From contig JAGKSZ010000047.1 in assembly GCA_018991295.1 (NCBI GenBank), forward strand, positions 1 to 32,435: a stretch of DNA of 32,435 bases, in the 5' to 3' direction. The stretch comes from Porphyrobacter sp. (lineage in GTDB: Bacteria; Pseudomonadota; Alphaproteobacteria; Sphingomonadales; Sphingomonadaceae). A program made the translations under genes and the position numbers. A model generated the notes under the pieces. It was not told the DNA's origin. It saw only the letters and a list, made by a program, of their open reading frames with translations, and searched no databases. Of the stretch, positions 974 through 13,869 are shown piece after piece. The stretch's first letter is position 1; every line of letters starts with the position of its first letter.

Positions 974-1963
974 ATGAATACACATGCTCGTCTTTACGCC
1001 TCGTTTGCCACGATCCTTGTTCCTGCCATGCTGGCCGGCCATGCCGCGCCTGCGCTGGCCGGAGGGGTGACCGCTGGCACACTGATCGAGAACACCGCCG
1101 TTGCCAGCTTCGATGAAGCCGGAACGCAGCGGTCCATCAATTCGAACACCGTCACCGTGCGCGTCGATGAATTGCTCGATGTGACCGTGACCTCGCTCGA
1201 TCCCGGCCCGGTCAACGCCCGTGCAGGCGATGCCGTGCTGACCTTCGAAGTCACCAATCAGGGCAACGGGCCCGAAGCCTTCCGTCTCACGGCTGAAACC
1301 GCTGTGGCAGGCAATGATTTCGACGTGACGCTTCGCGCCATGGCCATCGATAGCAACGGCAACGGCACCTATGATGAAGGCGTCGACCAGATCCTTGCCA
1401 GCCCGCAAACAACCCCGGTGCTGGCGCCCGATGCGCGTCTTACCGTGTTTGCGCTGGTCACCGTGCCGCAAGGCGTGGCCGATGGCGATACCAGCAATGT
1501 CCAGCTGACCGCTGCCGCTGCTACCGGCAATGGTGCGCCCGGCACCACCTTTGCCGGTCAGGGCGTGGATGGCGGCGATGCGGTGGTCGGCACGACCGGC
1601 GCGCTGGCTTCGGCACGCGGCAGCCTGATCGGCGCGGTTGCAGGCGTTGCTCTCGTCAAGTCTGTTACCCTGCGCGATCCCTTCGGCGGCACCAGCGCCG
1701 TGCCCGGGGCCACCGCAAGCTTCCGCATCGAAGCCCGCGTCAGCGGCACCGGCGCGATCAGCAACCTTGCCGTCACCGACGCGATCCCGTCCGGCACGAC
1801 CTATGTCGCAGGCTCGCTGGCGCTGGACAGCACGACACTCACCGATGCCGCCGATGCCGATGCCGGGACTGCCTCGCAGGCCGCAGGCGTCGCTGTGACG
1901 CTCGGCTCGGTCGCGGCCGGGACCACCCGGACCGTGACCTTCGACGTGACCATCGACCGCTAA
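974..1963 (+). CDS. Secreted split-DUF11 protein (donor hairpin + Ig-like domain + acceptor domain); putative minor pilin/adaptor
   Basis: Sec signal ending ALA|G; N-terminal AGTLIENTAVASF...SNTVTVRV; DSNGNGTYD loop; C-terminal LVKS..VPGATASF..VTDAIPSGTTYVAGSL..VTFDVTIDR-stop. Confidence 0.8.
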   Translation: MNTHARLYASFATILVPAMLAGHAAPALAGGVTAGTLIENTAVASFDEAGTQRSINSNTVTVRVDELLDVTVTSLDPGPVNARAGDAVLTFEVTNQGNGPEAFRLTAETAVAGNDFDVTLRAMAIDSNGNGTYDEGVDQILASPQTTPVLAPDARLTVFALVTVPQGVADGDTSNVQLTAAAATGNGAPGTTFAGQGVDGGDAVVGTTGALASARGSLIGAVAGVALVKSVTLRDPFGGTSAVPGATASFRIEARVSGTGAISNLAVTDAIPSGTTYVAGSLALDSTTLTDAADADAGTASQAAGVAVTLGSVAAGTTRTVTFDVTIDR

Positions 1964-2011
1964 GCAACCGCCACGATCTCCACCATCAACCGAACTTCCA
2001 AGGGCCGCACC

Positions 2012-2503
2012 ATGAAGACCATCTCCAAGCTCGCTCTCGCCTGCGCTGCCATCGCCAGCCTTGCCCTGCCCGTGCTTCCGGCCGCTGCGCAGGGCGCGCC
2101 CGGGCCGATCACGCTCAATGGCGATGTGAAGGCGGTCAAGACCGTCACCGATGCCGATGGCAAGGAGCGCACCGAACTGGTCGATCCGACCACCATCATC
2201 CCCGGCGATCGCCTGCTGTTCGGCACGGATTATGCCAACACCGGCACCGAGGCCGTGACCAATTTCGTCGTCACCAACCCGCTGCCCGGCGCTGTCCGGC
2301 TGGCGCCCGATGCCGATCCGGCGCTGGAGGTATCGGTTGACGGCGGCAAGACCTGGGGGCTGCTCAGCGCCCTCACCCTCACCAATTCCGACGGGACCCC
2401 GCGTCCCGCCACCCATGCGGATGTGACCCACGTCCGCTGGGTGCTGGCGAGCATCGCGCCCGGCGACAAGGGCAGGCTCACCTATCCAGCCATCATCCGC
2501 TGA
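2012..2503 (+). CDS. Small secreted DUF11-like single-domain protein; putative chaperone/cap
   Basis: Signal peptide ending AAA|Q; IIPGDRLLFGTDYANTG..VVTNPLP..HVRWVLASIAPGDKGRLTYPAIIR-stop. Confidence 0.75.
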   Translation: MKTISKLALACAAIASLALPVLPAAAQGAPGPITLNGDVKAVKTVTDADGKERTELVDPTTIIPGDRLLFGTDYANTGTEAVTNFVVTNPLPGAVRLAPDADPALEVSVDGGKTWGLLSALTLTNSDGTPRPATHADVTHVRWVLASIAPGDKGRLTYPAIIR

Positions 2504-2574
2504 AACGCGGGCGATAACCGCCAAGCCTCGCGGGCGGGACCATTGACGCGGGGCAGACACTCGGGACCAAAACC

Positions 2575-3627
2575 ATGAAGACCACCAAGCAGCTGCTGGG
2601 TGCGGTGAGCGCGATTGCGCTCGTCGCGATGTCCAGCACCCCTGCTCTGGCCGCAGGGACCAGCGCAGGTACGACCATCACCAACACCGTCACCGTCAAC
2701 TACAATGTCGGCGGCGTGGCACAGAACACCCAGAGCGCAACCGACGAATTCACCGTCGACCAGCGCGTCAACGTGACTGTGACGGCCATCACCACGCCTG
2801 TTTCGGTATCGCCGAACCAGACCAACCGCGTGCTCGCCTTCGATGTGGCCAACCTTTCGAACAGCACCGTCGACTTCGCGCTGACCACCGCGCTGGCGGG
2901 CGGCAATGCTTCGAACATCAGCAACATCCGCATCTATCGCGATCTCGATGGTGACCGGGAGCTGGATTCCAACGAACTGACCGCCGGCCCGATCACCTAC
3001 CTCGATGAAGTCGCGGAAGATGAAACTGTCGCGGTGCTGGTCGTCTCCGACATCAGCATCAACGCGGTGAACGGCAACACCTTCGACGTGAACCTGACCG
3101 CCGCCTCGCACGCTGCGGGCACCGCCGGTTCGCTTGGCGCAGTGCTTGCGGGCACCGCTGGCGGCGACACCGCCGGCATCGACACCGTGCTGTTCGACGG
3201 CGCGGGCATTGCCGATAGCGCCAATGATGGCCGCTTCTCGGCGCAGGGCCGCTACACCGTGGCAGGCGCGGTTCTGACCGTCGCCAAGTCGAGCCGCGTG
3301 GTCAGCGATCCGGTCAACCTCACCAACAACCCGAAGGCCATCCCCGGCGCGACGGTCGAATATTGCATCACCGTGGCAAACGCCGCCGGTGCTGCCACCG
3401 CGACCGACGTCAACCTGGTCGACGATCTGCCCGATGATGTGACCTTCGCGTCCGCCTTCGGCATCTTCGTCAATGGCGATGCGACCTGCTCGGCCAATAG
3501 CGGCACCACGGGCGGCAATTTTGCTGCCGGCGCCGGCGCTGGCGGGCGTGACCGCGTCAGCGGCGCGCTGAGCGATGTGGCAGCGGGCCAGACGCGCTCG
3601 CTCTACTTCCAGGTCGTGATCAACTAA
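2575..3627 (+). CDS. Secreted split-DUF11 protein; putative major pilin
   Basis: Signal ending ALA|A; AGTTITNTVTVNY donor; YRDLDGDRELD loop; LTVAKS..AIPGATVEYCITVAN..LVDDLP..LYFQVVIN-stop; Cys264/Cys305 pair. Confidence 0.8.
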   Translation: MKTTKQLLGAVSAIALVAMSSTPALAAGTSAGTTITNTVTVNYNVGGVAQNTQSATDEFTVDQRVNVTVTAITTPVSVSPNQTNRVLAFDVANLSNSTVDFALTTALAGGNASNISNIRIYRDLDGDRELDSNELTAGPITYLDEVAEDETVAVLVVSDISINAVNGNTFDVNLTAASHAAGTAGSLGAVLAGTAGGDTAGIDTVLFDGAGIADSANDGRFSAQGRYTVAGAVLTVAKSSRVVSDPVNLTNNPKAIPGATVEYCITVANAAGAATATDVNLVDDLPDDVTFASAFGIFVNGDATCSANSGTTGGNFAAGAGAGGRDRVSGALSDVAAGQTRSLYFQVVIN

Positions 3628-3647
3628 GCCTGATCCGGACTTAGGTC

Positions 3648-6600
3648 TTGCGTGTTTTCCCCTCCTTGCGCCGTCTGAAAGCGGCACTGGTGCTTGCGCT
3701 CGTGCCCTTCGGGCTGGCGCAGGGAGGGGTTCACGCCCAATCAACTGGCAATGCGACCGTCCGCACCGTCACCAACATCGCCGAGGCGAGTTGGGACGAG
3801 GACGGCGCACGCCAGCGGATTTCCAGCAATATCGTTCGTTTTGATGTGACCGCGCAAGCCGCGCCTGCCCCCACCATCCGGGTCTATCGCCGGGTTGCGG
3901 GCTCTGCGCCGGGCGCCGAGCTCGTCTACCGCGCTCCGCAATGCAATGCCCTTGCAGCTCCCGCACAGCAGCTGCGCGCCAATGCCACCGCGAGCACCAC
4001 CCCGAGCGGGCCAGCCATCAGCACCGCCCGCACCGCCACCGTCGAGCCGACCGACAAGCTGCGCGGCGGTGAACCGCTGTTCTTCGAAATCACCGCTGCC
4101 AGCGCCAACCGCGATCCCAACGCGATCGATATCCTCACCGTGGTGCTCACCACCATGGAGGGCGACCGCGAGACCATGACGGTCTTCGAAACCGAGGCCA
4201 ACAGCGGCGTGTTTGCCGGCGTTGTCGATACGCTGCGCATCCCCCCGGCGCTGGTGCAGGAAGACTGCCGCCTCAGCGTTGGCGCCGACAGCCGCATCAC
4301 GGTTGCCGCGATGCGCCCCGGTTCCGATGCGATGCTCATTTCTGCCGATGTCAGCGTGCTGGTCGATCCCTTCGGCGTGGTCTTCGACAGCGAAACCGGC
4401 GCGCCCGTGAATGGCGCGCGCGTCAGCCTGGTCAATGCCGATACCGGGGCGCCTGCCACGGTGTTCGCGCCTGACGGCATCACCGCCTGGCCTTCCAGCG
4501 TGATCAGCGGCCAGACGATCACCGATGGCGCGGGCCGCGCCTTCGCGATGGGTGCTGGCGAATTCTGGTTCCCGCTGACCACCCAAGGCCGCTTCCGCCT
4601 GACGGTCGAGCCGCCCGCCCCTTACACCGCGCCATCTGCTGCCCCGCGCGAGGCGCTGGCCCGGGTGACACGCCCGAACGGCCAGCCTTACGTCATCCGC
4701 GAAGGTTCCTTCGGGGATATCTTCGTGCTCGACAATCCGACGCCCTTCGAAGTCGATCTGCCGGTTGATCGTCCGGCGGCGGACCTCGGCCTTGTCAAAA
4801 CCGCATCGCGCACCCGCGTGCAGCCGGGCGATGTGGTGTTCTACACCCTCACCATCACCAACACCGATGCCGCGCGCGTGCGCCGGAGCGTGACGATCAC
4901 CGACACGCCCTCGCGCTGGCTGCGGCTGCGCCCCGATAGCGTGCGCATCAACGGCGCTGCGGCTCCGCAGGCCGTGGCCATCGCGCCCGATGGCCGCACC
5001 CTGACCGTCAATCTGGGCGATCTGGCCGCAGGAACCGCCGCGCGCGTGACCTATGCCATGACCGTGCGCCCCGATGCTCCACCGGGCCGTGCGGTCAATG
5101 CCGCGCTGGCCCGCGATGCGCTGGGCCGCGAAGTGCGCGCCGATGCCGCCATCGACATCGCGCGTGACGGGATCGCCGACCGCATGACCATCATCGGCCG
5201 CATCACCGCAGGCCGCTGCACCCTGCCCGATGCCGAGCGCCGCGGCATTCCCGGTGTGCGCGTGATGCTGGAAGACGGCAGCTTTGCCATCACCGATGCC
5301 GATGGCCGCTATCACTTCGAAGGCGTGGTGCCGGGCACCCACGTGGTGCAGGTCGCGCCGATGACCCTGCCCGAAGGCGGCCGCTTCGTCGATTGCACGC
5401 GTTCCACCCGCAGCGCCGGCAGCGCGATCTCGCGCTTTGCCACAGGGCAAGGCGGGAGCCTGGTGGTGGCCGATTTCCACGCCGAACTGCCGCAGGGCGC
5501 GCTTGTGCCGGCACCTGCTGCTGTGGCCGAAGCCCCCGCTGATGCAGCCGCAACCAAGACAGCTGCGTCTGCCGCCACGGATTACATGGCGCTGGGCGAT
5601 GGCGAGGACGGTTTCCTCGCCCCCGCCCCCGATGCCAACCCCCGCGCGCCCGCCATCAAGGTCGCCGTGCGTCACCGCCGCGGCCAGACCGTGGTGCTGC
5701 TGGTTGATGGCAAGCCGGTCGAGCCGCTCGCCTTTGAAGGCACGCAGACCGCGGAAAAGGGCAAGTGGGCCGTCAGCCAGTGGCGCGGCGTGCCGCTGCT
5801 GACCGACAAGACCGTGCTCGAAGCACGCATCGTCAATTCCTTTGGCGAGGTTTCCAAGACCTTCACCCGCGAAGTGTTCTTCACCCGCGCACCGGCGAAG
5901 GTGGAATTCCTGCGCGATTCCTCGAACCTCATTGCCGATGGCCGCACCCGCCCGGTGGTGGCCATCCGCGTCCTTGATCGTAACAATCGCCCCTTGCGCG
6001 AAGGCATTTCGGGCAGCTTCACGCTGAACGCGCCCTATCAGAGCGCCGAGCAGATCGACCGGCAGCAACTGAACCAGCTCACCGGCACCACCCCGATGGC
6101 GGCGCGCTGGGTGGTCGAAGGCACCGAAGGCATTGCGAAGATCGAACTGGCCCCCACCATGGTCAGCGGGTCGCTGCGGCTTGGATTTACCTTTGACGAT
6201 GGCGAAATCACCCGCCGTCAGGAACTTGAAGGCTGGATCGAGCCGGGCGAAGTCGAATGGACGGTGATCGCCCTTGCCGAAGGCACCGTGGGCGCGCGTT
6301 CGGTGGCGGACAACATGGAACGGGCTGGCCGGTTCGACAGCGATCTTGGGGAAGATGCGCGCATCGCGCTTTATGCCAAGGGCCGGGTGCTGGGGAAGTA
6401 TCTGCTCACCCTCGCCTATGACAGCGCCAAGCAGCGCGATGACCAGCGCGTGCTCGGCGCGATCGATCCCAATGCCTATTACACCGTGTTCGGTGATGGC
6501 TCGGCCCGCCAGTTCGATGCCGCCAGCCGCGAAAAGCTGTATGTGCGCATCGAAACCGCCAGCTTCTATGCACTTTACGGCGATTTCCAGACCGCCTTCA

Positions 6601-8792
6601 ACCAGACGCGCCTTGCCGCATACAATCGCACCGCCACCGGGGTGATGGGGGAAGCGCGGCTTGGCGGGATCAAGGCACAGGGCTTTGCCGCGCAGATTTC
6701 AAGCCGCTTCCGGCGTCAGGAAATCCAGGGTCAGGGCATCACCGGCCCCTACAGCCTGTCGAGCCGCCGTATCCTTGCCAACTCGGAACGCGTGACGCTG
6801 GAAGTGCGCGACCGGTTCCGCCCTGAACAGATCGTCTCGGCCCGCACGCTGACGCGCTTTACCGATTACGAGCTTGATCTGCTGGCCGGCACGATCCGCT
6901 TCAAGGCCCCTGTCCTCAGCCGCGATGAAAACCTCAACCCGCAGTTCATCGTGATCGAATTCGAAAGCGATGGCGCGGGCGAGGCCGAATGGAACGCCGG
7001 CGCGCGGGCTGACTGGACGAGCGAGGATGGCCGTATCCGTATCGGTGCCAGCGCGCTCAGCGATGCAGGCCTCGAAGGCGCACGCGGCACCGCGCAGCGC
7101 ACCGATATCGGCGCACTCGATCTGCTTGCCCGCGTCGGCGAGAACACCGAAGTGCGCGCCGAAATCGCCATGAGCCAGCGCCAGGGCGACCGTGCGCAGG
7201 GCTGGCTTGCCGAAGTGCAGCACCAGACCGGCGATGTCGATCTGATCGCCTATGCCCGCCAGATCGATGCCGATTACGGGATCGGCCAGCAGAACGCGGT
7301 CGAGCGGGGCCGCCGCAAGGTCGGCGTGGACGGGCGCGTGCTGATCACCGAAGAACTCAGCTTCACCGGCAGCGTGTGGCAGGACGAAAGCCTGATCGAT
7401 GCCGCCCGCCGCCGCGCTGCGCAGGGGCAGCTCGCGCTGACCCGTCAGAGCACCAACCTGCGCCTTGGGCTGGTCCACTTCAATGATCGCCTTGCCGATG
7501 GCAGCAACGCGGCCTCGACCGTGCTGGAAGCAGGCGCGACCCAGCGGTTGTTCGATAACAAGCTGGAGCTTTCCGCAGGCACCGCCGTGGCGCTGGACAA
7601 GGCGGAAAGCCTTGATCTGCCGGCCCGCCACCGCTTGGGCGCGCGTTATGCGATCACACAGGATGTGCGGCTGGTGGGCACCTATGAAATCGCCAAGGGT
7701 GACCGGATCAATGCGCGCAGCCTGCGCGGCGGGATCGAAGTTGCGCCCTGGCAGGGCGGACAGGTGACCACGACGCTGGGGCAGGAAAGCATCGGTGAAA
7801 ATGGTACCCGCAGCTTCGCCGCCTTCGGCCTGTCGCAGACCCTGCAGGTGAGCCCCACCCTCACCCTCGACGCGACGCTCGACGGCAACCGCACGCTCGG
7901 CGGCACGCCTGCCACAGGCGATCTCGTCAATCCGGCCCAGCCGCCAGCCAGCGGCGGCCAGATCACCGGCGGACTGCTGTTCGAAGATTTCACCGCCGCC
8001 ACCTTTGGTGCTGCCTGGCGCAAGGACCGCTGGAGCATCACTGCCCGCGGCGAAGTGCGCGATGGCGAGACGGCTGACCGCAAGGGCGCGCTGCTCGGCG
8101 CGATCCGCCAGCTGGGCGAAGGCAGCCTGGTCGGTTCGGGCGTGACCTGGACCCAGGCCGAAGCGATCGGCGGGGCCAAGGCGGAGATCCTCGATGCCTC
8201 GATCGCCTTTTCGCACCGTCCTGCGCATTCACCTCTCGCGATGCTGGGACGGGTCGAATATCGCAGCGACCGCATCACCGGCGGGGTGGCAGGGGAGATC
8301 GGCGGCGCTGGCGGGGCAGGCCGCACCGCGCTGACGGTGGATGGCAACGCCACCTCGCGGCGGCTCGTCGGCAGCCTTTCGGCCAACCTCAGCCCGCGCG
8401 GGCACGATGATGCTGGCGCAGAAACCCGCCGCGACGAATTCGTCCTGTTCGTGGGTGCGCGCCACAACCTCGATCAGTTCGAAGGCAGCGAGTTCACCGG
8501 CACCGCCGTGCTGGTCGGCGGCGATGCCCGCATCGGCATTGGCGAGCGGATCGAGATCGGTGCCAGCACCACGGTGCGCAGCAGCCTCGAAGATGAAGTG
8601 ACCAGCTTTGCCTATGGCCCGACGCTTGGAATCGTGCCGGTCAAGGGGATGCTGCTTACGGTTGGCTACAATATCGAAGGCTTCCGCGACGGCGATTTCG
8701 GCCCGGCGCGCAACACCCAGAAGGGCGCCTTTGCGGCAGTGCGGATGAAGTTCGATGCCTCAAGCCTCGGCTTCCTCGGGCTGGGCCGCTGA
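3648..8792 (+). CDS. Large outer-membrane protein: N-terminal donor hairpin, Ig/carboxypeptidase-regulatory-like domains, complete DUF11, SdrD-B-like domain, C-terminal beta-barrel; putative pilus anchor/usher
   Basis: TTG start, signal ending VHA|Q; FGVVFDSETGAPVNGARVSL; LGLVKTAS..VQPGDVVFYTLTITN..ITDTP..GRAVNAA; GIPGVRVMLEDG..TDADGRYHF; from about residue 870 many amphipathic beta-strands ending GAFAAVRMKF. Confidence 0.8.
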   Translation: MRVFPSLRRLKAALVLALVPFGLAQGGVHAQSTGNATVRTVTNIAEASWDEDGARQRISSNIVRFDVTAQAAPAPTIRVYRRVAGSAPGAELVYRAPQCNALAAPAQQLRANATASTTPSGPAISTARTATVEPTDKLRGGEPLFFEITAASANRDPNAIDILTVVLTTMEGDRETMTVFETEANSGVFAGVVDTLRIPPALVQEDCRLSVGADSRITVAAMRPGSDAMLISADVSVLVDPFGVVFDSETGAPVNGARVSLVNADTGAPATVFAPDGITAWPSSVISGQTITDGAGRAFAMGAGEFWFPLTTQGRFRLTVEPPAPYTAPSAAPREALARVTRPNGQPYVIREGSFGDIFVLDNPTPFEVDLPVDRPAADLGLVKTASRTRVQPGDVVFYTLTITNTDAARVRRSVTITDTPSRWLRLRPDSVRINGAAAPQAVAIAPDGRTLTVNLGDLAAGTAARVTYAMTVRPDAPPGRAVNAALARDALGREVRADAAIDIARDGIADRMTIIGRITAGRCTLPDAERRGIPGVRVMLEDGSFAITDADGRYHFEGVVPGTHVVQVAPMTLPEGGRFVDCTRSTRSAGSAISRFATGQGGSLVVADFHAELPQGALVPAPAAVAEAPADAAATKTAASAATDYMALGDGEDGFLAPAPDANPRAPAIKVAVRHRRGQTVVLLVDGKPVEPLAFEGTQTAEKGKWAVSQWRGVPLLTDKTVLEARIVNSFGEVSKTFTREVFFTRAPAKVEFLRDSSNLIADGRTRPVVAIRVLDRNNRPLREGISGSFTLNAPYQSAEQIDRQQLNQLTGTTPMAARWVVEGTEGIAKIELAPTMVSGSLRLGFTFDDGEITRRQELEGWIEPGEVEWTVIALAEGTVGARSVADNMERAGRFDSDLGEDARIALYAKGRVLGKYLLTLAYDSAKQRDDQRVLGAIDPNAYYTVFGDGSARQFDAASREKLYVRIETASFYALYGDFQTAFNQTRLAAYNRTATGVMGEARLGGIKAQGFAAQISSRFRRQEIQGQGITGPYSLSSRRILANSERVTLEVRDRFRPEQIVSARTLTRFTDYELDLLAGTIRFKAPVLSRDENLNPQFIVIEFESDGAGEAEWNAGARADWTSEDGRIRIGASALSDAGLEGARGTAQRTDIGALDLLARVGENTEVRAEIAMSQRQGDRAQGWLAEVQHQTGDVDLIAYARQIDADYGIGQQNAVERGRRKVGVDGRVLITEELSFTGSVWQDESLIDAARRRAAQGQLALTRQSTNLRLGLVHFNDRLADGSNAASTVLEAGATQRLFDNKLELSAGTAVALDKAESLDLPARHRLGARYAITQDVRLVGTYEIAKGDRINARSLRGGIEVAPWQGGQVTTTLGQESIGENGTRSFAAFGLSQTLQVSPTLTLDATLDGNRTLGGTPATGDLVNPAQPPASGGQITGGLLFEDFTAATFGAAWRKDRWSITARGEVRDGETADRKGALLGAIRQLGEGSLVGSGVTWTQAEAIGGAKAEILDASIAFSHRPAHSPLAMLGRVEYRSDRITGGVAGEIGGAGGAGRTALTVDGNATSRRLVGSLSANLSPRGHDDAGAETRRDEFVLFVGARHNLDQFEGSEFTGTAVLVGGDARIGIGERIEIGASTTVRSSLEDEVTSFAYGPTLGIVPVKGMLLTVGYNIEGFRDGDFGPARNTQKGAFAAVRMKFDASSLGFLGLGR

Positions 8793-8821
8793 ACATGATT
8801 GCGCACGGCGACAGGCGGTTT

Positions 8822-8841
8822 GCTAACCGTGTGTTTACCAT
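8822..8841 (+). promoter_or_regulatory. Second CtrA-like box, upstream of the adhesin gene
   Basis: GCTAACCGTGTGTTTACCAT (CTAA-N7-TTTAC) aligns with GCTAACGAGTTGCTAACCAT at 933-952; both lie about 20 nt before an ATG. Confidence 0.45.
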
Positions 8842-8860
8842 GATTTCCTATCCGATAGGG

Positions 8861-10729
8861 ATGATTACGAGGTCGCCCTTCCCGCGCCGCTGGCTGGCGC
8901 TGCTGCTGCTGGCGTGCGCAATGCTGTGGAGCCCGGCCGCACAGGCGCAGAACTGCGCGCAGGCCACCACCCAGGGCACCGCTCCTGCCAGCTGGCAGAC
9001 CTATTGCTGGCTCAACCTTGCCAATTACAACGATACCACCGCGCGCAGCGCATCGGGCCAGAACATGAGCTTTACTCTGCCCGATGGCTCGACCCTGACC
9101 TTCAATGCGCGGGTTACCGGCACCAACCCGGCCTATAATGCCGTCACTTCGCCATCCTGGAGCGGATCGGCGGTCGGCAACAGCGCCTTCATCGGCATAC
9201 CGGGGCGGCCCGTGCTCTACTCCGCACAGGCAGGGACCAGCACCATCGCCATCACCAACATCTCCATCGCGCCCCCGGCAGGCGGCGGCGTGACGGTCTA
9301 TTCCTTTGTCGTTGCCGATGCGGAATCGAGCAATGACGGCGAAGCGATCCGCGTCACGACCAATGGCGGCGGCTGGCAGTTGTTCGATTCCGTACCGCCG
9401 ACTTCGGGCTCGACCATGCCGCCGATCAGCGGGGTGGGCAGCAGCAATGTCACCATCACCGGCGCGCCGGGCACGGTTGGCGCCTATATTCTTGGCAGCA
9501 ACAGCCCGACCAGCGTGACCATCCAGACCCAATCGGGCGGCCTGCAAGGGGTGATGATCGCCATCCGCTTTGCCACGATCCGGCTCCAGACCCAGTTCCT
9601 TGGCACGCGCGTGAACAGCGCCGATCAGCTCAGCTACCAGATCGCCTCGACCGCCACCGGCAGCGCGATCAGCAGCGGCACCACGACCGGCACAGGCGCA
9701 GGGCCCTTCACCACTGCACCGCTCAGCATGTCGGCCGGTATCCCGATCACGCTGCGCCTTGCGATGGCCAGCGGGAGCGCAAGCGCCACCACCGCCTACA
9801 CCGCCAATCTCACCTGCGTGAACACGGCAGGCACCACCCGCGCCAGCCTGCCCAACAACCTTTCAGCGACCACCGCCAATATCGGCCAGCTTGAATTCGG
9901 GGAATTTCTGGTCTGCACCTTTCAGGCTGGCGCCCAGCCCCGGCTGCGGGTGCGCAAGGCATTGAGCACCGCGCGGCGCTTTACCGGGGATCAGTTTACC
10001 GTGCGGATCATGGATGGGGCGAGTGTCGTCGCCTCATCGACCACGGCGGGCAGCAGCAGCACGATCAATACCGGCACGGGTGACACAGGGCTGGTGCAGG
10101 TCATCAACCAGCTGGCCTATACTGTCGACGAAATCGCTGCGGGGACCGGCAATCTCGGCAATTACACCGCCACCATGGCCTGCACCAACGCGACCAGCGG
10201 TTCGACGACGGCGCTGCCAACCGCAGTGGGCGGAACGATCAGCCTGCGACCCGGCGATGCGATCACCTGCACCATCACCAATGCCCGCCGCAATGCCGCA
10301 CTGCTGGTGATCAGCAAGACCAGCACGGTCATTTCCGATCCGGTCAATGGCACCACCAACCCCAAGCTGATCCCGGGCGCGATTGTCGAATATGCGATCA
10401 CGGTGCGCAATGTCGGCAATACGACGGTCGATTCCAGCTCGATCGTGATCCTTGATGTGATGCCTGCCGAAATGGCCTTCGCTACCGGCACGCCGGTGAC
10501 CTTCACCAACGGCACGCCGACCAGCGGGCTCAACACCTTCAATGCGGGCACGATGGTGCGCTTCACTTCGGCTGCAGGCGGGGCGGCACCCTATACTTAC
10601 ACACCGGCCGGACCGTTCGATGCCAATGTGCGCGGCATCCGCATCAACCCCACAGGCACGATGGCCGCAGCCACCAGCGGGACAAGTCAGCCGAACTTCA
10701 CGATCCGCTTCCGCGCGCGGGTGCAATAA
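8861..10729 (+). CDS. CshA/CshB-related fibrillar adhesin with two SpaA/CnaB-like repeats and a C-terminal DUF11 acceptor; putative tip adhesin (ORF track starts at 8795; 8861 preferred)
   Basis: AGGG before ATG 8861, signal ending AQA|Q; WQTYCWLNLANYN and FVVADAESSNDGE resemble the CshA non-repetitive domain; ..YTATMACTN..GDAITCTITN; LVISKTS..LIPGAIVEYAITVRN..ILDVMP..IRFRARVQ-stop. Confidence 0.75.
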   Translation: MITRSPFPRRWLALLLLACAMLWSPAAQAQNCAQATTQGTAPASWQTYCWLNLANYNDTTARSASGQNMSFTLPDGSTLTFNARVTGTNPAYNAVTSPSWSGSAVGNSAFIGIPGRPVLYSAQAGTSTIAITNISIAPPAGGGVTVYSFVVADAESSNDGEAIRVTTNGGGWQLFDSVPPTSGSTMPPISGVGSSNVTITGAPGTVGAYILGSNSPTSVTIQTQSGGLQGVMIAIRFATIRLQTQFLGTRVNSADQLSYQIASTATGSAISSGTTTGTGAGPFTTAPLSMSAGIPITLRLAMASGSASATTAYTANLTCVNTAGTTRASLPNNLSATTANIGQLEFGEFLVCTFQAGAQPRLRVRKALSTARRFTGDQFTVRIMDGASVVASSTTAGSSSTINTGTGDTGLVQVINQLAYTVDEIAAGTGNLGNYTATMACTNATSGSTTALPTAVGGTISLRPGDAITCTITNARRNAALLVISKTSTVISDPVNGTTNPKLIPGAIVEYAITVRNVGNTTVDSSSIVILDVMPAEMAFATGTPVTFTNGTPTSGLNTFNAGTMVRFTSAAGGAAPYTYTPAGPFDANVRGIRINPTGTMAAATSGTSQPNFTIRFRARVQ

Positions 10730-10737
10730 GGCGGCGC

Positions 10738-11415
10738 TTAGCCTGCCCAGCTTTCACCCAGCGCATCGGCCACCACGGCAGCGCGCAAGGCGGCAATCCC
10801 CATGCCCTTCTCGCTGCTGGTGAGGTGAATTTCGGGGTGTGCGGCGACGTGCTTTTTCGCCTCGGCGGCGGTCGCTTCTGCGACCTTGGCCAGATCGCTC
10901 GCCTTGATCTTGTCGGTCTTGGTGAGGACGATCCGGTATCCGACCGCAGCCTGATCGAGCATCGTCATCATTGTCCGGTCAACGTCCTTGATGCCGTGGC
11001 GGCTATCGACCAGCACCAGCGTGCGCGACAGGACCTGCCGCCCGCGCAGGTAAGAATTGACCAGCGCCTTCCACTTTTCGACCACCTTCACCGGCGCTTT
11101 GGCAAAGCCATAGCCGGGCATATCGACCAGCCGGAACAGCGGCAGCGCGCCTTCATCCTCAGGGCGGCCCACATCGAAGAAGTTCAATTCCTGCGTGCGC
11201 CCCGGCGTCACCGATGCCCGCGCGATGGACTTGCGGCCTGTGAGCGCATTGAGCAGCGAGGACTTGCCCACATTCGAACGCCCGCAAAAGGCGATTTCCG
11301 GCACGACCGGATCGGGCAGGAATTGCAGCTGCGGGGCAGAACGCAGGAAATCGACCGGCCCCGAAAAGAGCCTCGATGCCGCTTCTTCGCGCTCGTGCTG
11401 TACGGTCTCGTCCAT
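10738..11415 (-). CDS. engB: Ribosome biogenesis GTPase EngB/YihA (true start MDETVQ at 11415)
   Basis: FCGRSNVGKSSLLN (G1), TPGRTQ, DMPGYG (G3), TKTDK (G4). Confidence 0.95.
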   Translation of the reverse strand: MDETVQHEREEAASRLFSGPVDFLRSAPQLQFLPDPVVPEIAFCGRSNVGKSSLLNALTGRKSIARASVTPGRTQELNFFDVGRPEDEGALPLFRLVDMPGYGFAKAPVKVVEKWKALVNSYLRGRQVLSRTLVLVDSRHGIKDVDRTMMTMLDQAAVGYRIVLTKTDKIKASDLAKVAEATAAEAKKHVAAHPEIHLTSSEKGMGIAALRAAVVADALGESWAG

Positions 11416-11423
11416 TGCGCGCG

Positions 11424-13178
11424 TCAGGTCTTTTTCGCTGCGGCCGCCGCATTGGCCGCCTTCAGTTGTGGATGCTTGGAATAGAGGTAGCTCTGCTGCG
11501 CCACGGTGAGGATGTTCGAGGTTACCCAGTACAGCAGCAGGCCTGCGGCAAAGGGCGCCATCACAAACATCAGGATCCACGGCATGATCGCAAACATCTG
11601 TTGCTGCACCGGGTCCATCGCGGACGGATTGAGGCGGAAGGTCAGCCACATGGTGATCCCCAGCAGCACGGCAAGCGGGCCGATGGCAAGGAAGCTCGCT
11701 TCCGGCACGGCAAAGGGCAGCAGGCCGAACAGGTTGAGGATATGCGCAGGATCGGGCGCGGACAGATCCTTGATCCACAAGATGAACGGCTCGTGCCGCA
11801 TCTCGATGGCGAGGACCAGCACCTTGTAGAGCGCGAAGAACACCGGGATCTGGATCAGCATCGGCAGGCAGCCGGACAAGGGGTTCACCTTCTCGTCCTT
11901 GTAGAGCTTCATGATCTCCTGCTGCTGGCGCTGCTTGTCGTCCTTGAAGCGTTCCTGGATTTCCTTCATCCGCGGCTGCACCGCCTTCATCGCCGCCATC
12001 GAGGCAAAGCCCTTCTGCGCGACGGGGAACATCAGCCCGCGGATGATGACGGTGAGCAGGATGATCGCCACCCCGAAATTGCCGACCACGCCGTTGAGCG
12101 AGCGCAGCAGCCACAGGATCGGCTTTTCAAAGATCTCGAACCAGCCCCAGCTGATCGCCTTGCCGAAATAGGTGATCCCGCCATCTTCGTAGGTATCAAG
12201 GATCTGGCTGTCCTTGGCGCCCGCATAAAGGCGGGTTTCCTGCGTCACGGTGCCGCCCGCCGGCACGGTAACAGCGCCATGAAGCAGATCGGTGCGGAAC
12301 AGTTTGCTGCCAAGGCTGCGGAAGCCTGCATCGTCAACCTTGACGTTGCCTTTGCCATCCCCCGGAACCAGCGCGGCGAGCCAGTACTGATCGGTAAAGC
12401 CCAGCCAATCGGGTGCGCCTGCCGGGCTTTCACCGCCCAGTTCGGCCAGCTCGTCATAGGAATGCGGGTCCCACAGCGTCCCGCCGAACACGCCGACGGG
12501 GCCGGAGTGCGACACGAACTGATCGATCGTGGCATTGGTGCTGGTGCGCTTGATCAGCGCGAAGGGCTGCACCACCGCAGGGGCAGCGCCAGCGGTCACG
12601 CTTTGGGTGGCGGTGATCATGTAATTGGCATCGACCGCAAAGCGGATGCGATAGGTCACGCCAGAGGCATCGGTGCGGGTGAGGGTCACCGGCGTGGTCG
12701 GCGTCAGCTTGGTGGCATCTGCCTGCCACAGCAGGTTCGAAGCCTGGCGCTGGCCGCCTGCGACAAAGCCGAATTCCGCAAAATACTGCCCCGGCGTGCC
12801 TTCAGGCGCGAACAGGCGGACAGGGCCTGAGTCCTTCTTCACCGTCTCGCGGTAATCCTTGAGCTCGATATCGTCGATCCGCGCGCCGACAAGGTTGATC
12901 GATCCGGACAGGCGCGGGGTATCGATCGCCACGCGGTTGCCGCCGCCAAGTGCGGCCTTCAGGTCAACCTTGCGCGTCGCAGCCTCAGCGCCAAGATTGC
13001 CTGCACCGCCCGCCGCAGCAATCGGAGCGGCAGCCGGGCCTTCGCCCTTGGCCGCAGCCGTCGCAGCTGCCTGTGCGGCAGGTGCCGGCTCGGGGTAGAA
13101 ATACCGCATGCCCACGTCCCACCCGAGAATGAGCAAGCCGGAAAGTACGACGGCGAGCAGAAGATTGCGATTGTCCAA
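11424..13178 (-). CDS. yidC: Membrane protein insertase YidC (TTG start at 13178 or 13184)
   Basis: N-terminal TM, periplasmic domain, GNFGVAIILLTVIIRGLMFP, KVNPLSGCLPMLIQIPVFFALY, WIKDLSAPD, GLLLYWVTSN. Confidence 0.97.
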   Translation of the reverse strand: MDNRNLLLAVVLSGLLILGWDVGMRYFYPEPAPAAQAAATAAAKGEGPAAAPIAAAGGAGNLGAEAATRKVDLKAALGGGNRVAIDTPRLSGSINLVGARIDDIELKDYRETVKKDSGPVRLFAPEGTPGQYFAEFGFVAGGQRQASNLLWQADATKLTPTTPVTLTRTDASGVTYRIRFAVDANYMITATQSVTAGAAPAVVQPFALIKRTSTNATIDQFVSHSGPVGVFGGTLWDPHSYDELAELGGESPAGAPDWLGFTDQYWLAALVPGDGKGNVKVDDAGFRSLGSKLFRTDLLHGAVTVPAGGTVTQETRLYAGAKDSQILDTYEDGGITYFGKAISWGWFEIFEKPILWLLRSLNGVVGNFGVAIILLTVIIRGLMFPVAQKGFASMAAMKAVQPRMKEIQERFKDDKQRQQQEIMKLYKDEKVNPLSGCLPMLIQIPVFFALYKVLVLAIEMRHEPFILWIKDLSAPDPAHILNLFGLLPFAVPEASFLAIGPLAVLLGITMWLTFRLNPSAMDPVQQQMFAIMPWILMFVMAPFAAGLLLYWVTSNILTVAQQSYLYSKHPQLKAANAAAAAKKT

Positions 13179-13258
13179 GTTCAAGCCCCGAGCGAATGCG
13201 ACATTTGGTGTATTATGGGGTTAAGGCGGTCCGGTTACCAGTCCCCCGGATGATGGCC

Positions 13259-13468
13259 CTAGGGAACGGGATCGTGCCCGCACCCACCCCAAGGCTGGCA
13301 GCGCATTAGCCGCTTCGCTGCCATCCATCCACCCTTAAGCGCGCCGTATTTGCCGATCGCCTCGATCGCATACTGGCTGCACGAAGGCGAAAAGCGGCAC
13401 GAGGGCGGCAGGATACGCGAAGGGCCAAGCTGCCAGCCGCGCGCGATGAGGATGAGGAGTTGCTTCAT
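13259..13468 (-). CDS. yidD: Membrane protein insertion efficiency factor YidD
   Basis: CRFSPSCSQYAIEAI..GALKG..RLMRCQPWGGCGHDPVP; conserved position between rnpA and yidC. Confidence 0.95.
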   Translation of the reverse strand: MKQLLILIARGWQLGPSRILPPSCRFSPSCSQYAIEAIGKYGALKGGWMAAKRLMRCQPWGGCGHDPVP

Positions 13469-13869
13469 TTGCGGCGATTGCCCTTTCGGGGGCGACGCCC
13501 GCCTGCCGGATCGCCGCGCCCTTCGCGGGCACGCTCCAGCGCCTTGGCGAGTTCATCGGCCATCAGGTGGAAGTCGCGCTCGATCCCGCCAGCGCGGCCG
13601 ATCAGCACGTGATCATGGTCGGCCAGGCCCTGCACCGGAAGCGCGGCCCGCAACAGCTCGCGCAAGCGCCGCTTCATGCGGTTGCGCACCACCGCGTTGC
13701 CGATCTTCTTGGTGACGGTAATCCCGAACCGGATGCCCTGCCCGTCATTCGGGCGGGTCAGCAGCACGAATCCAGCGCGGGCATTGCGGGTGCCGCTGTT
13801 CGCCGCCAGAAAATCGGCGCGCTTGGTGAGCGTCTTCACAGGGATCGTGGCGCTTGCCGCCTGAGTCAT
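13465..13869 (-). CDS. rnpA: Ribonuclease P protein component
   Basis: LTKRADF, RFGITVTKKIGNAVVRNRMKRRLRE (RNR motif). Confidence 0.95.
   Translation of the reverse strand: MTQAASATIPVKTLTKRADFLAANSGTRNARAGFVLLTRPNDGQGIRFGITVTKKIGNAVVRNRMKRRLRELLRAALPVQGLADHDHVLIGRAGGIERDFHLMADELAKALERAREGRGDPAGGRRPRKGNRRK

Follow-up and report, generated by a model that had tools for sequence, protein, structure and literature searches.

We analysed a 32,435-nucleotide stretch of Porphyrobacter sp. DNA (contig JAGKSZ010000047.1 of assembly GCA_018991295.1; hereafter the window) and found a five-gene operon, termed A to E, whose products probably build an adhesive surface fibre. Judged from the sequences, a DUF11/CLIPPER domain is split between neighbouring subunits, such that the N-terminal hairpin of one would complete the truncated C-terminal domain of the next and be locked there by a Lys-Asn isopeptide bond. 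A self-polymerising fibre of this kind had been put forward from the window sequence alone (hereafter the original prediction). The system is conserved and real, and apparently lacks a description in the literature. As the original prediction had noted, the five genes are co-oriented; their open reading frames (ORFs) span positions 974-10729, with intergenic gaps of 48, 71, 20 and 2 bp in order:

974-1963, plus strand: A, 329 amino acids (aa)
2012-2503, plus strand: B, 163 aa
2575-3627, plus strand: C, 350 aa
3648-8792, plus strand: D, TTG start, 1714 aa
8795-10729, plus strand: E, annotated as 644 aa, with ATG 8861 or nearby as alternative start

Truncated DUF11 domains and Asn hairpins in the operon proteins

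By alignment, A, C and E keep the Lys and Asp of the domain and end before its Asn hairpin, whereas A, C and D begin with an Asn hairpin. The hairpins (donors), truncated domains (acceptors) and further domains, including immunoglobulin (Ig)-like ones, are arranged as follows:

about 1061-1171, plus strand: donor hairpin of A after the signal peptide (N40 at 1091), followed by a middle Ig-like domain
1637-1960, plus strand: truncated DUF11 acceptor of A (K229 at 1658, D269 at 1778)
2012-2503, plus strand: B, a single truncated DUF11 acceptor with G37 at the Lys column, N89 at the acid column and no donor
2653-2763, plus strand: donor hairpin of C (N37 at 2683)
2764-3264, plus strand: middle Ig-like domain of C
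3265-3624, plus strand: truncated DUF11 acceptor of C (K238 at 3286, D283 at 3421)
about 3738-3851, plus strand: donor hairpin of D (N43 at 3774)
4776-5177, plus strand: complete DUF11 domain of D (K384, D419, N484); D also has Ig and transthyretin-like domains
6252-8789, plus strand: predicted C-terminal outer-membrane barrel of D, about 35-40 strands
8999-9562, plus strand: CshA_NR2 domain of E, followed by two SpaA_3 domains; E has no donor
10295-10726, plus strand: truncated DUF11 acceptor of E (K508 at 10316, D554 at 10454)

Profile PF01345 (cut-off 24.6 bits) matched D (31.3 bits) and C (28.7 bits), and TIGR01451 (cut-off 24) matched A, C, D and E with 31.6, 33.8, 32.6 and 24.1 bits, respectively; B stayed below the cut-off of both. 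Only the internal domain of D holds a full Lys/Asp/Asn set within one continuous domain. A profile of 23 complete D-type domains, in which the three residues are invariant, aligned with the solved CLIPPER domain 9IFR (E-value 2e-9), with K384, D419 and N484 of D falling on its Lys, Asp and Asn. The Lys-Asn spacing of 91 residues in 9IFR matches the published one, and the position of its Asp differs from that in print by at most one residue. The PF01345 match and this alignment bear out the complete domain that the original prediction had recognized in the large protein.

It had further held that the other four proteins end in the same domain, cut immediately ahead of the Asn strand. In A, B and C, the C-terminal domain indeed aligns to intact DUF11 and ends one column before that strand; the local alignment of E breaks off earlier, its C-terminus being nevertheless fixed. 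No extension follows the C-terminus in 73/73 relatives of A, 73/74 of B, 76/78 of C and 64/64 of E. As for the missing piece at three N-termini, its Asn is conserved in A, C and D, and its likeness to the intact strands is weaker than had been claimed. Scored against the two final strands of intact DUF11, the donor hairpins exceeded 5 bits in 64/120 A, 17/128 C and 14/97 D sequences, against at most 3 among controls, 0/126 for B and 0/57 for E, whereas profile-profile alignment of the donors with the intact domain gave nothing significant. The sequence likeness thus appears modest.

Conservation in close relatives was counted over the first 78 loci. N40 and K229 of A are each present in 73/73 and D269 in 72/73; N37, K238 and D283 of C each in 78/78; N43 of D in 64/68; and K508 and D554 of E each in 63/64. 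Poor conservation of these residues had been named beforehand as a sign against the split-domain fibre, and what we found is conservation of 94-100%. A more distant set weighs more, because close kin share many further residues as well. Among 110 single-subunit proteins within the top 150 of a search of 1.84 billion proteins, 101 keep the Asn, Lys and Asp, and 103 stop at most two residues from the end of the acceptor profile.

Natural losses and fusions

Natural losses, counted over all loci with gapped fragment rows of D set aside, bear on whether a hairpin completes its own protein or a neighbour. In the intact domain of D, loss of Asn is accompanied by loss of Lys in 15/15 ungapped rows, and Lys alone is lost in none. 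By contrast, the donor Asn of A is lost in 13/144 rows, 12 of which retain A's own Lys and Asp, so that the Lys of A behaves independently of the Asn of A. Among the 92 loci with both A and E, 81 are intact in both and 9 have lost the A Asn together with the E Lys/Asp; one lost only the A Asn (L111) and one only the E pair (L171). A cognate E without Lys/Asp accompanies 10 of the 11 known cases of A Asn loss, including that of a second operon copy in the window genome. The clade with these losses retains the C triad and the donor Asn of D; because D keeps this Asn where E has lost Lys/Asp, D and E are not mutual partners there. On a quick tree of 59 loci, for which a careful search is unfinished, the L124 loss is placed apart from the main clade.

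The second, diverged operon copy (G000:C244:2198-8653, L079; and G000:C271:17318-20146) has Ser for the donor Asn of A, whose Lys is lost too, and a D without internal triad; its C is intact. Its likely tip, on another contig, lacks Lys/Asp and is 71% identical to the L120 tip. Relatives of this copy carry β-helix tips of about 1100-1850 aa. A long open frame lies 5' of the copy (L079:1-2103), which seems to join two putative carotenoid-pathway genes, possibly by frameshift.

Tandem fusions offer a second view of the subunit junction. P0130 (696 aa) consists of two whole subunits, in which the first acceptor runs through its last strand and a short turn into the second Asn hairpin and middle domain, making an ordinary complete domain at the junction. 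P0145, P0139 and the tip of L125 likewise show an acceptor, then a hairpin, then a middle domain. These sequences look as would be expected of chain neighbours, and suggest that the system may have originated from a repeated stalk of DUF11 plus middle domain that was cut inside DUF11.

These data bear on a reading in which A and C would be monomers with a circularly permuted domain, each completing itself with its own hairpin, while D and E pair mutually or with B. A single-chain model of C is confident throughout, A of the second copy lost Asn and Lys together, and the D donor and E acceptor could in principle match. Against this stand the 12 of 13 Asn-less A proteins with Lys/Asp, set beside the 15/15 co-loss in the cis domain of D, the D donor Asn that persists where E lost Lys/Asp, and superposition of the C model on tandem Ig pairs, a weak hint of a rod. 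We consider self-completion very improbable, and the loss patterns, as read from sequence, favour trans over cis assembly. Moreover, D has only a donor and E only an acceptor, so neither could complete a domain alone; this assignment agrees with the original prediction and with conservation and profile scans alike. The trans hairpin of its model is likewise backed by conservation, losses and tandem fusion, whereas its equivalence of A and C is not.

The losses could also be accommodated by a polymer of donor hairpins in which the bond is unformed or dispensable and the triad merely a conserved structural core. Whole clades without the reactive residues of A and E and without the internal triad of D keep intact ORFs. 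According to the accessible parts of the two source papers, moreover, the N35A mutant of the clostridial fibre protein BsaA still forms oligomers stable in sodium dodecyl sulphate until heated (PMC11580942), and the bond is missing from a part of the DUF11 domains (PMC12617251). Yet C keeps all three residues in 152/152 complete rows, partners are lost together, and the persistence of a buried Lys, Asp and Asn across classes would be difficult to account for if no reaction took place. We therefore regard a non-covalent polymer as improbable.

Several observations weigh against the proposed covalent trans fibre. The single-chain model of C scores the hairpin itself at a predicted local distance difference test (pLDDT) value of ~95. 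On the unfinished quick tree the A Asn loss has three origins only (main clade, L124 and L111), and the Lys-less tips of the main clade and L124 are related, being 39% identical in the acceptor, so the E loss may have a single origin. In L111 the E Lys/Asp stay although the A Asn is gone; conversely, L171 combines an intact A Asn with a Lys-less tip, as do L203, L204 and L206, whose unlinked or adjacent tip lacks Lys by eye. Ser replaces the donor Asn of D in L117 and, it appears, in L118. As the clade with the A-E loss also lost the D internal triad, selection may have relaxed there in general. Confidence in the barrel model is low (pLDDT 67, predicted template modelling (TM) score, pTM, 0.46), its first quarter being poor. 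Finally, a D-C-A-E chain with one of each subunit would conserve residues identical to those of a long polymer.

Subunits A and C

C is found in every operon and holds Asn, Lys and Asp in 152/156 rows, the other four being fragments, and is likely the major, universal shaft subunit. A shares 29% identity with C, has K229 as its sole Lys and is dispensable, since operons of the form B-C-D-E exist; it is likely a minor subunit, a tip adaptor pairing with E. In L214, L216, L217 and L219, the fetched region contains no A, and the D internal domain has Arg for Lys together with Ser for Asn.

The single-chain model of C has a pLDDT of 95.6 and a pTM of 0.82. Foldseek search followed by re-alignment revealed no solved structure in which two domains are laid out as in C (TM 0.36 at best; highest Z 9.5, to a generic Ig domain), which is not in itself proof of a new fold. 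Neither C nor an A/C profile had a significant match among PDB sequences. Over both domains the model superposes on end-to-end tandem Ig pairs (e.g. 166 residues, 4.8 Å), which weakly hints at a rod with the hairpin far from its own groove.

Whether C repeats in the chain separates a fibre from a short, fixed D-C-A-E stalk with one or few C subunits, which would use the same trans covalent links to show the tip protein. Conservation and loss patterns fit such a stalk equally well, and in some relatives subunits of about 900-1000 aa would provide length within one chain. However, the tip acceptor of the A-less operon L214 resembles that operon's own C acceptor, which suggests that the C donor fits a C-type groove and would allow homopolymerisation; together with P0130, nothing evident halts C-C repeats. 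The universal, unreactive B is also easier to explain if polymerisation needs control. The short stalk is thus unlikely. In L222-L229 the subunits measure about 870-1130 aa, with the Asn hairpin first and the Lys/Asp acceptor last, and the order is B, long subunit, D, second long subunit and tip; in the examples inspected, the acceptor has a Cys pair in its first hairpin.

B, an unreactive acceptor

The acid column of B aligns with D419, D283 and D269 of D, C and A but holds N89, with Asp in 3/152 relatives; its Lys column, whose register is inferred from the in/out pattern of the strand, holds Lys in 0/152. With both reactive residues absent, the role of covalent pilin that the original prediction had implied for B was rejected. 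The simplest role for this almost universally present protein, and a likely one, would be to cap or chaperone donor hairpins without a covalent link. Atlas matches for B, and those for the barrel of D, are unnamed clusters.

D, the predicted anchor and pore

The last 846 residues of D were modelled as about 39 long strands by our own count from the element list, and D is predicted to serve as anchor and assembly pore. With this weak model, the Foldseek matches were to barrels of a generic kind and did not exceed a TM of 0.32, with a TM of ~0.22 to FimD, and a barrel profile had no match among PDB sequences. A likeness of the barrel insert to SprA, the translocon of type IX secretion, found no support: there is no sequence match and the Foldseek hit ranks 25th (TM 0.27, root-mean-square deviation 27 Å, weak model).

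OmpA domains lie between stalk and barrel in 3/3 distant D relatives scanned. OmpA-like domains are periplasmic, so their position places part of the D N-terminal region of these relatives in the periplasm. It also speaks for a scaffold hung below the barrel within the periplasm or envelope, with no surface fibre at all. Against such a scaffold stand tips that bear extracellular-type binding modules (CshA_NR2, ice-binding, β-helix) and a predicted barrel exceeding the 24-strand usher (PMC13721041, accessible part), and it is the least probable of the alternatives considered.

E and the variety of tips

E would be an acceptor-only tip adhesin in which the acceptor is constant and the cargo variable. 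The cargo consists of CshA_NR2 and SpaA_3 domains here, and of ice-binding, GEVED, P-domain or β-helix modules in relatives. In one tip, L110:606-1817, an ice-binding-like domain (PF11999, E-value 2e-60) is fused to the acceptor; minimal tips of little more than signal peptide and acceptor occur at L156:7955-8608, L114:11597-12250 and L215:6526-7248. Ten genomes without E in the fetched region were checked: in eight, a full E-type acceptor lies close beyond that region or elsewhere in the genome, and the other two encode large proteins with a C-type acceptor at their C-terminus. Unlinked tip genes with the same truncated acceptor, up to at least three per genome, were observed in L186-L209 (e.g. 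G670, G581, G538 and G453), which suggests a repertoire of interchangeable tips.

Proposed assembly

We propose the following scheme for assembly of the fibre. Sec would carry all five proteins over the inner membrane, consistent with signal peptides called by eye in each. In the periplasm, B would cap the donor hairpins and block cis or premature locking, as a mirror image of PapD. Assembly would start at the tip: the N40 hairpin of A would lock to K508 of E, with D554 as catalyst. The N37 hairpin of C would then lock into A at K229, and further C subunits would follow (K238/D283) to give a linear C polymer, while the chain threads through the large barrel of D. Growth would end once the N43 hairpin of D occupies the acceptor of the final C subunit and so anchors the fibre, in the order tip E, adaptor A, repeated C and anchor D. 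The stalk of D would bear the load with an ordinary intramolecular K384-N484 bond, and the OmpA domains of relatives would grip peptidoglycan.

We put at slightly below an even chance the broader proposal of a separate two-membrane pilus pathway, in which a barrel of about 35-40 strands threads a covalent polymer and becomes its last link, an inverse chaperone has a dead acceptor, and interchangeable tips scattered over the genome plug in via a constant C-terminal groove. There is a real chance that this assembly pathway forms a class of its own.

Distribution and genomic context

The nearest named relatives of C belong to Erythrobacter and other Sphingomonadales. A survey of gene neighbourhoods across genomes, suggested along with the original prediction, found the order exactly A-B-C-D-E in 52/78 loci around C relatives; the remaining loci are cut by a contig end, have a broken D, lack E or carry two E genes. 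D is broken over several ORFs by frameshifts or stops in L004, L006, L007, L039, L060, L072, L077, L176 and L215, which may reflect assembly errors or decay. An A relative was found in 122/200 genomes of the genus and 97/274 of the host family, and, with the same query, in 0/126 genomes from the other families of the order. In another class of the phylum, 18/400 genomes matched (a tally including the unpublished genome G1172). Sixteen of these 18 distant operons were fetched: each has donor/acceptor subunits together with a D-type barrel, and B is present in 15, the sixteenth beginning at a contig edge. A single-protein search of the class of G081 returned only G081 itself (1/133). A Synechococcus-labelled contig (L003) carries the operon at ~80% identity to the window and clusters with it on the tree; it is probably a mis-binned sphingomonad contig.

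In the window, the operon is flanked by a glyoxalase-family gene on one side and a convergent housekeeping block (GTPase, yidC, rnpA; 10738-13869) on the other, the latter at most 9 bp from the 3' end of E. A promoter and terminator scan of the locus gave results at chance level.

A motif scan of the five proteins found no LPxTG, lipobox or type IV prepilin (class III cleavage) motif, and searches of Pfam and NCBIfam at E-values up to 1 matched none of them to PapD, usher or PapC-FimD families. These negatives agree with the original prediction, which had noted no type IV prepilin, LPXTG or PapD signature. Nor did the operon proteins match pilin Pfam families, the TasA family or any peptidase, as SipW would be, in Pfam/NCBIfam; no sortase was matched among the operon and neighbouring ORFs scanned, and TasA was absent from the PDB sequence search results.

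Comparison with known systems

The published systems are compared here from the accessible parts of the cited papers. A review ties covalent inter-subunit links in pili to the sortases of monoderms and presents those that two-membrane bacteria build by donor-strand exchange as non-covalent (PMC13721041). If the proposed scheme is true, the fibre, self-locking and equipped with a giant barrel, would represent a further appendage class and assembly route, and would give many genes annotated as DUF11 hypothetical proteins a testable role. The natural split-isopeptide pairs (A-E, C-A, C-C and D-C), with built-in specificity, would be of use in protein engineering and surface display: an orthogonal natural tag/catcher set and display pathway in about one third of the sphingomonad genomes sampled, and beyond.

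The closest relatives of the domain itself are the DUF11/CLIPPER adhesins (9IFR; PMC12617251), which share the Lys/Asp/Asn triad and whose Lys-Asn bond raises unfolding from ~45 to ~80 °C. The Acinetobacter CLIPPER adhesin has the same plan as the operon, with a CshA_NR2 tip, a CLIPPER stalk and an OmpA anchor. It is, however, one long chain with intramolecular bonds, whereas the operon divides the domain among proteins and adds a dedicated barrel. The accessible text of that paper mentions no donor-strand or split form; its Table S2 might list truncated DUF11 entries. The grappling hooks GhpA and GhlA (9FLP; bioRxiv 10.1101/2025.08.19.671072) are likewise surface filaments of DUF11 domains, but each is a single chain of ~6000 residues with no split domain or subunit polymerisation.

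Exchange and lock of a donor strand is not unprecedented. In Clostridium perfringens BsaA (TasA family; PMC11580942), donor-strand exchange is locked by a self-catalysed Asn-Lys bond with no sortase, the acid of the acceptor catalysing the reaction of the N-terminal donor Asn with the acceptor Lys, as supported by models and Ala mutants. The BsaA triad is reported mainly in Clostridia. Its catalyst is Glu, its host is a monoderm and SipW processes it, whereas the operon has Asp, an outer-membrane barrel and no TasA match; DUF11 goes unmentioned in the accessible BsaA text. With this fibre already known, what is apparently new is the split-DUF11, two-membrane version. The archaeal thread Saci_0406 (PMC9715654) is similar: its filament forms by strand donation, an isopeptide between subunits has been proposed for it, and a protein with only a donor is a candidate cap. 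There, however, Asn is joined to the amine at the N-terminus of subunit n+2 rather than to Lys, in an archaeon with no outer membrane, and Saci_0406 is not among the fold matches listed for C.

The chaperone-usher pili Fim and Pap (PMC13721041) share with the proposed layout of the operon an acceptor-only tip, an adaptor, a shaft with N-terminal donors, a small periplasmic helper and a barrel. They are held together non-covalently by a single donor strand, in contrast to the two-strand hairpin and proposed covalent lock here. The groove of a subunit is occupied by PapD in those pili, while B would itself provide a groove; the 24-strand usher has no donor, whereas D has about 35-40 predicted strands and a donor hairpin. 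Ig-like subunits and strand donation also occur in tafi (PMC11821415), TLP-1 (PMC11494351) and CPR Pam (PMC13278184); TLP-1 forms a single-domain n+4 helix, and the accessible texts on tafi and Pam mention no isopeptide.

We found neither the operon nor a split DUF11 described in the open-licence papers and bioRxiv preprints searched, including the accessible parts of PMC12617251, PMC11580942, PMC11821415, PMC10787695, PMC13297417, PMC13721041, PMC11494351, PMC9715654, PMC13278184 and bioRxiv 10.1101/2025.08.19.671072.

The operon differs from sortase pili in lacking LPxTG and a sortase, and from TasA/BsaA fibres in lacking a TasA-family or SipW-type match. Type V pilins use Ig-like strand donation with lipoprotein precursors and a C-terminal donor strand; the operon has no lipobox, and its proteins end in acceptors with missing strands. 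By the gene families and sequence motifs tested, the operon falls outside the chaperone-usher, sortase, type IV, type V and TasA systems. Altogether, the operon resembles the chaperone-usher pili in layout and BsaA in chemistry, and by analogy looks like a CLIPPER adhesin cut into polymerisable parts with exchangeable tips.

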